From a virus (Duplodnaviria; Caudoviricetes): a stretch of 41,120 bases of DNA. This document shows positions 8,232 to 15,504 of this stretch, in pieces (position 1 is the stretch's first letter; every line of letters begins with the position of its first letter). The notes under the pieces were generated by a model that ran no database searches, was not told the origin of the DNA, and was given only the letters and a program-made list of their open reading frames with translations. The stretch covers positions 1 through 41,120 of IMG/VR virus record IMGVR_UViG_3300020045_007165. One strand, written 5' to 3'. The position numbers and the translations under genes were made by a program.

Positions 8232-8378
8232 TTATTTATTTAACTCTTTACATGAAACAAGTTCGATATTTTTTACTTTGGCTTCTTTGCATATCTTGAA
8301 TGGGTCAGCGGGCAAAGTTGCTACCGCCATCAAAAATCCAAAGATGATACAAATTATCATTTTTGCGTAATCTAACAT
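8232..8378 (-). CDS. Small exported or membrane protein (48 aa, paired Cys); first gene of the left operon, not in the track
   Basis: MLDYAKMIICIIFGFLMAVATLPADPFKICKEAKVKNIELVSCKELNK; RBS AAGGA. Confidence 0.6.
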   Translation of the reverse strand: MLDYAKMIICIIFGFLMAVATLPADPFKICKEAKVKNIELVSCKELNK

Positions 8379-8441
8379 GGGTTTATTCCTTTGTTTGTGT
8401 AGCAGCAAAGTATTTCTAAATTCCCCTGCCGCTACAAAACA

Positions 8442-8523
8442 ACCCTAGCATGGGTGAAAAGGTATTGCAACAAAAAAGATAATATTTTTATCTATTGACT
8501 TATCAATTAGATAGGAATATTAT
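8442..8523. promoter_or_regulatory. Divergent promoter hub 1 with candidate operator
   Basis: Rightward TTGACT(8495)-17-TATTAT(8518); leftward TTGCAA(8470)-17-TAGGGT(8447); imperfect inverted repeat tatctattga-ctta-tcaattagata over the rightward -35. Confidence 0.65.
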
Positions 8524-8545
8524 CACCATAAAGGAGTATATTTTT

Positions 8546-8728
8546 ATGAAATCAATCGAGAAAAAACTAGTTCAAGTGCGTATTCCACATGCATTATATA
8601 AAGAAATAGAAGAACACGCCGAAATACATGGGCGCAGTAAAGGTAGCGAAACGGCAATTCTAGTGCAGGAAGCTATGGCGGCGCGGAATAATACAGTATT
8701 TCAGTTTGCAAAGCCAAAGAAGAAATAA
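8546..8728 (+). CDS. Arc-family ribbon-helix-helix repressor
   Basis: VQVRIPHALYKEIEEHAEIHGRS; RBS AAGGAG before ATG 8546. Confidence 0.85.
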   Translation: MKSIEKKLVQVRIPHALYKEIEEHAEIHGRSKGSETAILVQEAMAARNNTVFQFAKPKKK

Positions 8729-8734
8729 CGAAAC

Positions 8735-8817
8735 ACCACCCCGCGCTTGCAGGGTGAGGGGTGGTTAGGGGATAAAAGCATTGCGCGAGTCGCGTTTACG
8801 CTTTTATCCCTGATTTT
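8735..8817 (+). terminator. Tandem hairpins after the Arc gene (terminator/attenuator candidate)
   Basis: accacccc/ggggtggt (8 bp) and gggataaaagc/gcttttatccc (11 bp) followed by tgatttt. Confidence 0.5.
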
Positions 8818-8841
8818 AACGGGTGAATGGAGGGTGAGAAT

Positions 8842-8976
8842 ATGGATGCGATTCTTTATACTTTAGTGTTGGCTGCTTGTATGTGTTTTTGCTTAGGACA
8901 CATACACGGCAGGCTTGAAAAAATATGGTTAGCCCTAGACGAGCTTGACCGCAAGAAATTGGATGCAGAAATATGA
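8842..8976 (+). CDS. Small N-terminal TM protein (44 aa); not in the track
   Basis: RBS GGAGG; MDAILYTLVLAACMCFCLGHIHGRLEKIW... Confidence 0.55.
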   Translation: MDAILYTLVLAACMCFCLGHIHGRLEKIWLALDELDRKKLDAEI

Positions 8977-9053
8977 ACTCATTTAGCCTGATACCCAATT
9001 AACCCCAACCCCCGCCCAGCAGGCAAAACCGATGCAAAGAGAGTGAGGAAGAA

Positions 9054-9254
9054 ATGACCGCAAAAACCATATTTGCTCTATTATGCCTCGCGCAAGGAAT
9101 TGCCGTTGGCTACGGATTTTATCAAGCAAGCATAAACGATAGCAAGAAATGGGCTATTTTCTGCGCCATTATGCTTGGCGGCATGTTTATGGATTTTCAA
9201 TTCGCAAAAACAAATTATATCCTTATGGGATTTTTGAAAGGACTTGGTTTATGA
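9054..9254 (+). CDS. Small 2-TM membrane protein
   Basis: RBS GAGG; two hydrophobic segments. Confidence 0.65.
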   Translation: MTAKTIFALLCLAQGIAVGYGFYQASINDSKKWAIFCAIMLGGMFMDFQFAKTNYILMGFLKGLGL

Positions 9255-12190: not shown

Positions 12191-12346
12191 TTAAATTATT
12201 CCATCATCTTCTTCATTGCATGATTGGCAGTAAAACTCATCGCTAGGCTCGTCGTTTATTCCGTCCTCAGTATAACGATAAAATCCCTCTGGGTAAGCAT
12301 CGCAATCACATAATTCACCACACTTAGCGCATAGTATCATTGACAT
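12191..12346 (-). CDS. Small acidic Zn-ribbon protein (51 aa); not in the track
   Basis: MSMILCAKCG...FYCQSC; RBS GAGGAG. Confidence 0.65.
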   Translation of the reverse strand: MSMILCAKCGELCDCDAYPEGFYRYTEDGINDEPSDEFYCQSCNEEDDGII

Positions 12347-12492
12347 AAAAGCTCCTCTGGTGGGTTATTAATTAGTATCGCTGAAAAATCATCGACTATT
12401 TTATAATAATCATCCCGAGTTACTTGTGACATTCCGCTTGGAAGCCATACAAGCTTTCTGTCTATGTATTTTGCTACTTCATCATAAGTCAT
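12337..12492 (-). CDS. Hypothetical protein (51 aa), first gene of the recombination operon
   Basis: RBS AGGAGG before ATG 12492 (MTYDEVAKY). Confidence 0.65.
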   Translation of the reverse strand: MTYDEVAKYIDRKLVWLPSGMSQVTRDDYYKIVDDFSAILINNPPEELLCQ

Positions 12493-12515
12493 AAAATCCT
12501 CCTGTAAAATTGTTC

Positions 12516-12568
12516 TTGCTAACAACACTAAAGTAATGTATGTTTTTATCAATGTCAACACTAAAGTG
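12516..12568. promoter_or_regulatory. Divergent promoter hub 2 with two repeated operators
   Basis: Rightward TTGCTA(12516)-17-TATGTT(12539); leftward TTGACA(12558)-17-TACTTT(12535); caacactaaagt at 12523-12534 and 12556-12567. Confidence 0.75.
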
Positions 12569-12576
12569 AGGCGAAA

Positions 12577-12777
12577 ATGAAAAAAAATGTATTAGATTTA
12601 TTCAACGAGATTATAGCGGGATTTGATACGCGATTAAAGAAGCTTGGCATGAGTAAGCGGCGATTCTGCGAGATTTCTGGTGTGCATGAGAATACCATGT
12701 ATCACATGAAAAACCCGACGATTTATACGCTGCACAAGATTGAAAGAGCGTTGCGCGATATGGAGGCTAGAAAATGA
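12577..12777 (+). CDS. Cro/Xre-like HTH regulator
   Basis: LGMSKRRFCEISGVHENTMY...PTIYTLHKIERAL. Confidence 0.8.
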   Translation: MKKNVLDLFNEIIAGFDTRLKKLGMSKRRFCEISGVHENTMYHMKNPTIYTLHKIERALRDMEARK

Positions 12778-13470: not shown

Positions 13471-13653
13471 ATGACTGAAGAAACATCAGGAGAGATGCTA
13501 CAGAGATTAGGTATGGATGGCATGCTGTGGTCAATTGAAATGCACAAATATTTCCCGCAAGTTCCACAAGATGATTTGCTTGGATGGTGCTGCAATATGA
13601 TTATGGCTGGATATGATGCGCGTGACAGAGAAGTTAGAGGGGCAATGGCATGA
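13471..13653 (+). CDS. Conserved phage hypothetical protein
   Basis: D...W..........L.GW..N.IMAGYD motif; RBS GAGG. Confidence 0.7.
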   Translation: MTEETSGEMLQRLGMDGMLWSIEMHKYFPQVPQDDLLGWCCNMIMAGYDARDREVRGAMA

Positions 13654-13799
13654 ATGAACAAACCACACAAACTATTGAGCGAACCCTATCAGAGCGCATA
13701 GATATGGCTAGGCGTTGGCGCAAGCAGTTTAAATACACTGGCGATGAGGAATTTCTCATGAATATTATTGAGGATTTGTTAGCACAAAAGCCTTGGTAA
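13650..13799 (+). CDS. Hypothetical protein (49 aa); not in the track
   Basis: ATGA coupling; MNEQTTQTIERTLSERIDMARRW... Confidence 0.5.
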   Translation: MNEQTTQTIERTLSERIDMARRWRKQFKYTGDEEFLMNIIEDLLAQKPW

Positions 13800-13825
13800 A
13801 ACCCCTTGCACAAAAGGAATGACCT

Positions 13826-14068
13826 ATGAGTGAAGATTATTATTTAGTTTGTAATAAAAAGAAAATCTATATGCCGTTATTCTCCATGAATATGGGTGGT
13901 ATTGGATTATCTGATAAGAGGTGGGTTTTTGATTTTATTCTTGCTTGTGGCAGGGAGGAAATAAAACTTGTCCACGAGGACAGTGACGATATGCCAGAAG
14001 ACCGAGCCTATCCTGATACGGAATGGGTTTTTATGAACGCTTGGCATCCATATAAAGGCGAGGAATGA
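13826..14068 (+). CDS. Hypothetical protein
   Basis: RBS AAGGA; MS..YYLVC...K pattern. Confidence 0.7.
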   Translation: MSEDYYLVCNKKKIYMPLFSMNMGGIGLSDKRWVFDFILACGREEIKLVHEDSDDMPEDRAYPDTEWVFMNAWHPYKGEE

Positions 14069-14072
14069 TTGC

Positions 14073-14474
14073 ATGTACGCAAGAAACGAAACCACTGAAT
14101 CACCCATAGACATATCCAAAATAATCGACCTATCCATAAGCTATTGCCACAATGCAATGCCGTTTATGGACTTACAAAACCCCCGCATGTGGGTGAAGGA
14201 TGGTTGTAATATAGAATTGGATATTATTCCGGTGATGAAAGAAGTGATGCAGAAGAAAAAAGGCATTACATGCTATAAATATTTTTCCACCCCTATCTAT
14301 GTTGCAAGGGATAAAAGGCTCGTCAAAGAAAAGTATGAAGCTGAAAAACCCGCCATTGATTGCGAGGCTTACATAAAGATTTACCAGTGGAAGCGTGATA
14401 GAAATATGCCGCTTAAAGAGGCGGAATTAAAGGCTTTACAGGAATATGAAAATAAGCTTGCAATTCAGAAATAA
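14073..14474 (+). CDS. Protein resembling the C-terminal (DnaD-like) domain of phage replication initiators, without an N-terminal HTH
   Basis: W...GC..E.DI.P.........I....YF...I..ARD.R pattern recalled from alphaproteobacterial phage initiators; replication-module position. Confidence 0.45.
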   Translation: MYARNETTESPIDISKIIDLSISYCHNAMPFMDLQNPRMWVKDGCNIELDIIPVMKEVMQKKKGITCYKYFSTPIYVARDKRLVKEKYEAEKPAIDCEAYIKIYQWKRDRNMPLKEAELKALQEYENKLAIQK

Positions 14475-14486
14475 TAGGCGTATAAA
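14458..14486 (+). promoter_or_regulatory. Sigma70 promoter driving the long non-coding region
   Basis: TTGCAA(14458)-17-TATAAA(14481). Confidence 0.7.
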
Positions 14487-14554
14487 TAAGAAGCTCCCGC
14501 GAAGCTATTAACTTCCGAGAGCGTGGTAACTAGAACTTTGCGGGTGGTAGTTAC
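14484..14554 (-). ncRNA. Predicted ~70-nt two-hairpin antisense RNA
   Basis: Own promoter upstream; hairpin GUAACUA/UAGUUAC, then hairpin GCUCUCG-GAAG/CUUC-G-CGGGAGC followed by UUCUUAUUU (intrinsic terminator). Confidence 0.65.
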
Positions 14555-14895
14555 AGAGGCATTATGCATAAAGCAGAGCCTTCTGTCAAACAAAAACCTC
14601 ACAAAAACTAATTGCTACAATATAGAGACACGTTTTGTACGTCATTGCTCTCGGCTAGGGCGTGTTTTAAGAGGCTGCAATAGCGGTAGGATAGGCAGCA
14701 TAGAGTGAGTCGAAAAGGGAATCTCTAACCTAGGCGCAGCACTGCGTTAAGTCCCAAAGCTAGAGGCAGGTGATAATGCTCTCTGGTGTGCCTAAGCGAA
14801 AAGCTCCTATACGGTGTTCTTCCCGGCATTAGACTTCATGCTATTAATTTGGCAGGGAGTCTTTTGTACCATCCGTAGCCCCTACCGGTGTTATT
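14492..14895 (+). ncRNA. Predicted ~400-nt structured RNA or long leader
   Basis: No credible ORF; nested helices 14684-90/14881-87, 14691-99/14803-10, 14731-38/14787-94, 14760-65/14781-86, 14701-05/14723-27. Confidence 0.6.
14561..14589 (-). promoter_or_regulatory. Counter-oriented sigma70 promoter for the antisense RNA
   Basis: TTGACA(14589-14584)-17-CATAAT(14566-14561) on the minus strand. Confidence 0.75.
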
Positions 14896-14913
14896 AAGTA
14901 AGAAAGTATCTTT

Positions 14914-15474
14914 ATGGGTAAGTATTGCAAGTTTATGAAGTATGCAGGGGTTGATATCCGTAAGGACGACCCAAACTATCACAAAACCATCATTGATTAT
15001 GTTCAGAACCTTTATGTTTCAAAGTTTGGCAAGAAACGCGATGGTCTTAATTATTGCAGGGCAAAGGCTGTTTTGGGGGTGCATTTTCAAGGATATGAAA
15101 TAACCCATCCTGACACTCGCAATGAAAAGTCAGCTAATCGAACGAAGAAAAGAAGAAATAAGTCTAAAACTACAATACAATCTAAGCCAAACAACCCGCC
15201 CAAGCTAAGTATTGTTAAAGCCAGTTATGCCTGTTCAGATGAGTTTCTTTTGTCCTATGAATGGCGAAAATTAAGATATGCGGCATTGAAGAAAAATAAC
15301 GGCAAGTGTGAACTATGCGGAAACGGCAGGGGAGATGGCGTAAAGCTTCACGTTGACCATATAAAACCGCGTAGAAAATACCCTGAATTGGCTTTGAGCC
15401 TAGAAAATCTACAGGTGCTATGCGAGTTATGCAATCATGGCAAGGGAAACTGGGATGAAACTGATTGGAGGTGA
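14914..15474 (+). CDS. HNH endonuclease (McrA-like, Zn-binding) with long basic N-terminal extension
   Basis: EWRKLRY..L.....CELCG...LHVDHIKPR..YPEL.L..ENLQVLCELCNHGK. Confidence 0.92.
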   Translation: MGKYCKFMKYAGVDIRKDDPNYHKTIIDYVQNLYVSKFGKKRDGLNYCRAKAVLGVHFQGYEITHPDTRNEKSANRTKKRRNKSKTTIQSKPNNPPKLSIVKASYACSDEFLLSYEWRKLRYAALKKNNGKCELCGNGRGDGVKLHVDHIKPRRKYPELALSLENLQVLCELCNHGKGNWDETDWR

Positions 15475-15504
15475 AAATAATTGCAAAATAATTGAAAATA
15501 GGCA

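Follow-up and report, generated by a model that had tools for sequence, protein, structure and literature searches.

Which process is controlled by a small antisense RNA that is predicted just behind half a replication initiator gene in a tailed phage? The locus that raises this question lies in the window, by which we mean the whole stretch of 41,120 bp that was analysed, a complete phage record with terminal repeats. The gene context of the antisense unit points to replication initiation as the target process. We propose, with a probability of about 0.5, that the antisense RNA is an RNA I-like inhibitor of a ColE1-like, RNA-primed origin. Such an origin would likely take over the role of the origin-binding initiator half, which was not recognisable in this genome. 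Some complete phage genomes have no recognisable replication start; the pelagiphage HTVC106P may depend on its host or hold a novel replication module (bioRxiv 2019.12.14.876532). The locus offers a concrete candidate, made up of a fragment of ~470 bp and one small gene.

A phage genome with half an initiator

When the window was searched with PHROGs (64 ORFs) and Pfam (56 scans), recombination genes (Erf, Gam-like, NinB and RusA), HNH genes, packaging genes and virion genes were found. No full initiator, initiator N-terminal domain, loader, helicase, primase, polymerase or integrase was recognisable in the same searches. Of an origin-binding initiator, only the C-terminal half could be recognised in this genome. 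The GC skew tracks gene direction and marks no origin. A divergent early control region at 12337-12777 contains a Cro-like HTH gene and no recognisable repressor, which together with the lack of a recognisable integrase suggests a lytic or unusual lifestyle. We also observed a small Arc/RHH-like gene (8495-8728) amid strong promoter-like sites on both strands of the leftward early region (8232-9145), and one capsid relative is labelled Methylococcaceae. Two genes frame the locus:

14073-14474, plus strand: 133-aa stand-alone C-terminal (DnaD-like) domain of lambda-O/DUF1376-type initiators, assigned by profile search and hhalign
14914-15474, plus strand: HNH endonuclease gene, directly after the 3' element B1

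The family of the 133-aa protein, as collected by profile search, comprises ~60 short relatives of ~130 aa as well as the C-termini of proteins of 250-340 aa. Twelve of the long matches were scanned, and seven carried primosomal, DnaD or O-like PHROGs and five DUF1376. In hhalign the protein matched residues 157-241 of P0069 (98.5%, E 3.5e-15). Judged by sequence, its relationship to initiator C-termini is firm. The structure model (pLDDT 91) was aligned with the DnaD domain 2i5u at Z 7.0 (rmsd 2.4 over 66 residues), tied with an unrelated AAA lid, and with a second DnaD domain at Z 5.3, where helical AAA-lid matches were tied as well. Because of these ties with unrelated helical lids, we hold the DnaD fold label of the model with moderate confidence. 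Foldseek with the model gave nothing at E<=0.001 and Pfam, including DnaB_2, gave no match, and an Atlas feature match linked the protein to a DnaB_2 cluster (0.91, rank 21). The protein is likely a helicase-loading adaptor. A split initiator was considered as well and dropped: the 80-aa ORF upstream has no HTH-like match, and the upstream genes vary between loci. A D5-like regulator lies upstream of the half-initiator gene in the related locus L157.

To survey relatives, 25 loci were collected, and removal of duplicates and fragments left six readable stand-alone loci. The duplicates were L125 and L134 (both of L124), L155 (of L123), L135, L138 and L140; L136 (truncated), L141 and L143 (atypical), L139 and L158 (spacer mostly unreadable) were excluded otherwise. 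In five of the six (L124, L132, L133, L157 and L123) the stand-alone gene is followed by a gene-free spacer of 307-618 nt, which in L123 comes after one intervening ORF. L156 has a stand-alone gene without a spacer, and the hairpin behind the L133 gene has the form of a terminator for the plus strand. Behind full-length initiators the next gene follows within 135 nt in eight of eight cases, and within 16 nt in six of them. The HNH gene also stands after the spacer in L157 and L177 (family assigned by eye in L177) and not in L124 or L132; we regard it as a passenger or homing enzyme rather than a constant part.

Searches for further relatives added little. No useful match came from blastn of the region against phage and plasmid sequences, and tblastn with two 133-aa family members hit no isolate phage or plasmid. 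Exact DNA patterns matched six stretches in viral contigs, two of them real (L124 type) and four by chance in coding DNA; other exact-pattern searches of viral contigs returned nothing, chance matches (with a loose pattern) or the L124 type again only. Locus scans led by a single protein or by the antisense module (termed A1 below) yielded no loci. A profile search of 267 genomes of the order of Zavarzinella formosa, the host of L157, returned only the two genomes already known, and a pattern search of 401 genomes of the class only G004. A DUF1376 search of G000 and G001 was uninformative, as control genomes gave none either.

A predicted promoter-driven antisense RNA

The antisense unit consists of two predicted features:

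14484-14554, minus strand: predicted antisense RNA of ~71 nt with a 5' hairpin bearing a C-rich recognition loop, a terminator hairpin and a U tail
14561-14589, minus strand: putative antisense promoter TTGACA-17-CATAAT, 11 of 12 consensus bases

A sequence-only reading had proposed a self-contained antisense gene of ~70 nt here, and promoter, both hairpins and U tail were all found where it had placed them. Folding of the 71 nt of the minus strand (14554-14484) recovered its two-hairpin structure at -22.8 kcal/mol (z -4.26), and none of 200 shuffles was equally stable. The plus strand of the same stretch (14484-14554) gave a z of -1.37 (18/200 shuffles). Fold energy alone is common, since 168 of 8210 genome windows of 71 nt are equally stable. 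The suggested termination in the antisense direction agrees with a terminator-like site that was called on the minus strand. The antisense promoter is the top one of five promoter-like sites in 13500-15500 and ranks fourth genome-wide on the minus strand by our own weighted score. As 5.0 sites are expected from shuffles, the number of sites is at chance level, while the quality of the antisense promoter is not. The region around its -35 box is kept in L157 and L177. A contig from run X8 differed at five positions over 14394-14544, with none of the differences within 14440-14544, and one from run X1 at four positions over 14455-14607, with DNA upstream of 14455 that could not be aligned. Run X7 contributed no aligned contig.

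These predictions support a promoter-driven, self-terminating antisense RNA of ~70 nt. The promoter and self-termination of the original proposal are thereby retained, while the gene appears to be half of a likely convergent pair rather than self-contained. The argument drawn from a YUNR U-turn in the loop was abandoned: this motif is present in 55% of random 15-nt loops and is uninformative by itself.

A leftward, self-terminating RNA where the replication slot begins recalls lambda OOP, which has ~75-77 nt (PMC3349717, PMC3985674). By analogy, the RNA could pair with the upstream mRNA at its 3' end, or act through its promoter, which would tune incoming transcription by collision; the downstream element would then be an ordinary DNA origin or unrelated. 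The -10 box, read as ATTATG on the plus strand, overlaps an ATG behind a ribosome-binding site, comparable to the lambdoid oop consensus (PMC3349717), and lambda pO is described to tune origin activation through interference (PMC3985674). In addition, similar minus-strand units stand upstream of some full-length initiators, most clearly in L127 and L130 among eight. However, OOP overlaps 55 nt of cII (PMC3349717), whereas the antisense RNA here ends ~10 nt past the stop codon (RNA end ~14484, stop 14474) without overlap with the upstream coding region, and there is no cII-like gene. Downstream lies a predicted non-coding RNA instead of gene O, and a separate recognition hairpin has a covarying partner. 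An OOP-like function would explain neither this covariation of loop and partner nor the strand-specific fold of B1 with its covariation; we consider it quite unlikely.

A predicted sense RNA and its folding switch

On the plus strand, the following features were predicted:

14458-14486, plus strand: predicted sense promoter TTGCAA-17-TATAAA with a start at ~14493, the best plus-strand site in 14380-14915
14526-14554, plus strand: predicted target hairpin of the sense RNA with loop core CTTTGCGGG at 14536-14544; the L157 loop has the same 9-mer, the L177 loop a variant
14592-14618, plus strand: downstream partner arm; in RNA longer than ~128 nt it would tie up the target loop within a long hairpin (14523-14618)
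14564-14611, plus strand: mini-ORF of 15 codons with AGAGG upstream and its ATG inside the antisense -10 box

The sense promoter scored 9.3, a site that is not distinctive alone: 108 plus-strand sites in the genome reach at least 9.0, and the -10 box is without its last T. This T is missing in most promoters of some alphaproteobacteria (PMC7703639), which may not be the group of the host. L157 has a counterpart of the promoter at the same place. Transcription from ~14493, at the base of the terminator hairpin, would yield a sense RNA of ~410 nt from gene-free DNA, which reaches the B1 element (14733-14902) and the first ~62 nt of which are complementary to the antisense RNA. The antisense RNA and this non-coding sense RNA are likely a convergent pair. 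We rejected the idea that the spacer hides a coding frame; the longest plus-strand frame without a stop spans 72 codons.

An alternative helix, 14496-14504 with 14536-14544, had been suggested for the sense RNA, and our predictions bear it out as 9 bp with one G-U pair. It is predicted at RNA lengths of 53, 98 and 113 nt (P 0.99, 0.93 and 0.72, respectively) and is not the predicted state at 63 or 78 nt, or at 128 nt and more. The growing RNA would therefore change between local hairpins and this helix, as a switchable RNA had been expected to do. At 128 nt, the long hairpin 14523-14618 is predicted with P 0.99. Its z value is -3.69 (0/300 shuffles), against -3.29 (2/300) for the minus strand. 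Analogous long-range helices are predicted to lock the loops of L157 and L177 at ~140 nt, and that of L177 to refold at greater RNA lengths. The helix with the upstream mimic was absent from the folding series of L157 and L177. For the partner of the target loop, the earlier suggestion was thus only partly right: the upstream mimic 14496-14504 does pair in the window, while the conserved partner lies downstream of the antisense -35 box.

The mini-ORF brings to mind the leader-peptide control of ColIb-P9 (Inc/repY) and R1 (CopA/tap), in which case the antisense RNA would block translation of the 15 codons and ribosomes would remodel the long hairpin. As in these plasmids, an antisense RNA lies upstream of a short ORF, and the sense RNA contains an internal mimic of the antisense loop (PMC4705826, PMC3753616; NC_002122). 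The P9 leader start is likewise beside the antisense -10 box (mechanism in PMC4705826), and the target loop agrees with that of ColIb-P9 at 10 of 11 bases (35/1000 shuffles, for a comparison picked post hoc). The loop core reads TTTGCG (window) or TTTGCC, compared with TTGGCG in IncI/IncFII. However, no rep gene is coupled, given that the mini-ORF ends at 14611, the next gene is the HNH gene at 14914 and the longest stop-free frame is the one given above. The start is not conserved either, as no ATG is present at the equivalent place in L157 or L177. The function of the mini-ORF is doubtful, and leader-peptide control here seems to us very improbable.

Homologous antisense modules with covarying loops

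L157 belongs to a Zavarzinella formosa prophage and has the same order as the window: half-initiator gene, terminator, target hairpin, antisense promoter, spacer and HNH gene. Its antisense module aligns with that of the window across both promoters with a score of 61 (shuffle mean 23, maximum 48; 0/1000 shuffles). When four other loci were compared with the antisense module of the window, only L132 came close (4/1000 shuffles). L157 shares the loop core CCCGCAAAG, and 36 of 2000 shuffles share any 9-mer. L177 is a second copy in the genome of L157 and is 93% identical to L157 over 120 nt. It probably continues the L158 prophage, since its first bases match those after the L158 half-initiator gene. 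The homologous antisense RNAs fold with z values of -2.9 (L157) and -3.3 (L177). We take 14484-14589 to be a real, conserved, predicted antisense RNA module (A1) of a family absent from Rfam, linked to a longer structured RNA, likewise predicted, in the replication slot of phages with a half-initiator.

In L177, GCCGGG takes the place of the GCGGGG in the target loop of L157, the other Z. formosa locus, and directly beyond the antisense -35 box CCCCGC gives way to CCGGCAAA. The cognate loop-partner duplexes of L157 and L177 were calculated at -16.1 and -15.0 kcal/mol, the swapped ones at -10.5 and -9.2 kcal/mol. A two-base change in the stem keeps nine of nine pairs on the minus strand and seven of nine on the plus strand. 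Compensatory loop changes in related phages, to which the sequence-only reading had looked as a check, are thus present in L157 and L177, two loci only. The loop of the window gave -6.3 with its own short partner piece alone and -16.3 with the partner of L177. In total, three A1 and four B1 sequences were compared in full, which is a small sample.

Exchangeable modules and the 3' element B1

The remainder of the spacer is divided as follows:

14624-14701, plus strand: variable middle module with a terminator-like hairpin (14626-14668) and a short U run
14733-14902, plus strand: conserved structured element B1, the candidate primer/origin region
B1, first half: hairpins H1 and H2, CTAAGC, direct repeat 1 (14807-14818) and hairpin H4 (14831-14862)
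B1, second half: CCATC, direct repeat 2 (14882-14892) and TAAGTAAG

In run X1 the stretch 14608-14701 was swapped for 83 other letters, and in runs X5 and X10 other upstream DNA was joined at the middle module. Modules are also combined differently between phages: the window and L177 have A1 with B1, L157 has A1 with an unrelated 3' part, and L124 and L132 have B1 with another small RNA.

Plus-strand hairpins with U-rich tails (14626-14668 and 14831-14866) would also suit an antisense-controlled attenuator or antiterminator that governs read-through into the HNH gene and later genes, possibly as the early-to-late switch of a phage without a Q-like gene. Such a device would easily explain the mixing of modules, and in the window, L124, L123 and L157 the terminase genes are situated downstream of the spacer. 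It would leave the link to the half-initiator unexplained, though, and the gene that follows the spacer varies. Moreover, separate strong plus-strand promoter-like sites lie downstream (15505, 16620, 19305 and 23081), and the predicted terminator hairpins are unchanged by antisense binding. We regard attenuation as unlikely.

The B1 of the window is homologous to that of L124 (alignment score 88, shuffle maximum 38) and, via L124, to those of L132 (L124-L132, 49, maximum 31) and L177 (L177-L124, 47, maximum 33); L177 and L132 align with a score of 51 (maximum 30). The direct alignments of the window with L132 and L177 were not significant (43/300 and 47/500 shuffles). In all four elements (window, L124, L132 and L177) the plus strand is more stable than the minus strand, and B1 alone folds weakly (z -1.7 in the window, -1.1 in L132). 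The elements contain G-U pairs, H1 and H4 show compensatory changes, and two of the four have UUCG loops. A direct repeat of 10-13 nt flanks H4 in each of them, which differs between phages and matches within each. Consensus folds by MAFFT/RNAalifold were misregistered and useful only in part.

Rfam gave no gathering-score match in the window, only GcvB (E 1.4) and CRISPR-DR36 (E 2.7) in 14300-15100, and nothing at E<=1 in five relatives. The antisense module and B1 are RNA families outside Rfam. The Betaproteobacteria-1 RNA (RF02932) had no match in 14300-15100 of the window; a sub-threshold match to it (21.9 bits, E 0.045, gathering threshold 49.4) was seen in the variable middle module of the second Z. 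formosa copy (L177:141-241). Primosome-assembly-site and twister-like motifs were considered and dropped, as Rfam had no match.

B1 could also be an RNA in its own right (a ribozyme or protein-binding RNA) or a single-stranded DNA signal, while the small RNA would set the amount of B1 or have a target in trans. To this we give a slim chance. B1 indeed accompanies different small RNAs, and one RNA-library contig covers just 14702-14872 with one difference, the sole contig on a 1.7-kb stretch; contigs carry neither strand nor ends, so that it is a weak hint of a stable RNA. Yet no Rfam family fits, and B1 is in or beside a half-initiator locus in all four cases (L177 by overlap only).

A model for RNA-primed initiation

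The RNA-primed origin is the reading that we prefer. In this model, host RNA polymerase would start the sense RNA at ~14493 and the antisense RNA at ~14554, with an overlap of ~62 nt. The target loop would be open briefly and then be locked in the long-range helix at ~130 nt, as is suggested by the predicted fold and the covariation in relatives. Sense RNA that is not bound by then may fold the 3' element and give rise to a persistent RNA-DNA hybrid around 14800-14900; pairing between repeat 1 in the RNA and the template strand of repeat 2 may nucleate it. The hybrid would either prime synthesis or expose the displaced strand, and the DnaD-like protein would recruit the host helicase. Binding of the antisense RNA while the loop is open would block the hybrid and priming steps, and loop variants may allow related prophages to coexist.

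The model is supported by the predicted RNA I/RNA II geometry, the homologous A1 modules with covarying loops, the half-initiator as neighbour, the spacers, the lack of other recognisable initiation genes and, suggestively, the direct-repeat pair that changes in concert in four of four B1 elements. Among 49 ORFs picked from four related phage regions there was likewise no initiator or loader, with the exception of a large helicase-like gene at the edge of G001. We count against it the indistinct sense promoter, the missing spacer of L156, the plus-strand terminator of L133, the GC skew, the weak loop-partner pairing in the window (-6.3), the weak folds of B1 alone in the window and L132, the tied DnaD fold match and the small sample. 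In addition, when 14493-14554 was kept from pairing, B1 was predicted to fold as before, so the coupling of the switch to the 3' element is unsupported by modelling, and free mixing of antisense and 3' modules is unexpected for a tightly coupled fold.

More tentatively, and at somewhat less than even odds, a group of tailed phages and prophages may have swapped the origin-binding half of the lambda-O-type initiator for a structured, antisense-controlled primer RNA while keeping the C-terminal helicase adaptor, which would make a hybrid of ColE1 RNA priming and lambdoid helicase loading. The RNA modules would then be swappable, and the loops would encode incompatibility groups.

Comparison with known systems

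ColE1 is described as needing no initiator: it uses a non-coding RNA primer and an inhibitor RNA complementary to the 5' end of this primer (PMC5043065). The hybrid depends on a stretch of rG in the RNA and of dC in the template (PMC4412123), a pairing that amounts to a direct repeat and parallels the repeat pair of B1. As with RNA I and RNA II in these sources, a short antisense RNA would here face the 5' end of a long non-coding RNA from a predicted convergent promoter, with no recognisable origin-binding initiator, a predicted folding window and variable loops. Unlike RNA I of ~110 nt, the antisense RNA has 71 nt and two hairpins, and there is no match to RNA I of Rfam. The phages also differ from ColE1 in being tailed phages with a DnaD-like half-initiator, in having repeats of 10-13 nt rather than G/C tracts, and in that the origin is a candidate here. 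If the model holds, the system works like RNA I/RNA II of ColE1, without being a family member by Rfam.

The ARRPOF and PAGEV motifs, structured and of 223-349 nt, also occupy gene-free plasmid-replication regions without a clear Rep (PMC5737381). Those belong to Fusobacterium and Vibrionales plasmids and not to phages, and neither had an Rfam match here. Searches of open-access text with narrow term combinations found no paper on a phage system of this kind. T4 encodes its own replisome. Its oriF and oriG resemble our proposal in that phage replication starts from a promoter-driven R-loop, while the passage of PMC4412123 on these origins describes no antisense control.

If the model is true, ColE1-style RNA priming reaches beyond plasmids to tailed phages, in an unrelated sequence family; about 60 orphan proteins of ~130 aa would gain a role. 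The strain that carries both Z. formosa loci has been deposited, and their loops differ, so that specificity is directly testable. Should the origin model be false, the antisense module and B1 are still families outside Rfam.

Further elements in related phages

After their stand-alone initiator domains, L123 (4000-4110) and L133 (900-1010) share a second type of conserved non-coding element, whose hairpin ends in GCGGAAAGCGG (score 71, shuffle maximum 37; no Rfam match). The 3' element of L157 is a third type, unlike both this element and B1. L124:1216-1294 and L132:3355-3427 each hold a different, single-hairpin candidate RNA on the minus strand with its own promoter, both with CGCCACCGTA; the U tail is weak, and the L132 candidate is more stable on the plus strand. 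The OOP-like promoter-hairpin units upstream of full-length initiators were located on the minus strand at L127:2040-2140 and L130:2020-2130.

No integrase was found among the ORFs picked from the Z. formosa prophage regions. Both regions adjoin a gene of ~1000 aa (L173:10169-13147 and L160:6076-9462). That of L160 has helicase-like PHROG matches, and the start of that of L173 we take to resemble a TrwC-type relaxase. A GapR-family gene (PF10073) was noticed in a prophage of a planctomycete genome (G001:C1:32294-32506, L171), with a similar ORF in the L157 prophage. Among 14 control genomes PF10073 was found in Caulobacter only, and module transfer or a mixed assembly are possible explanations for its presence in a planctomycete prophage.
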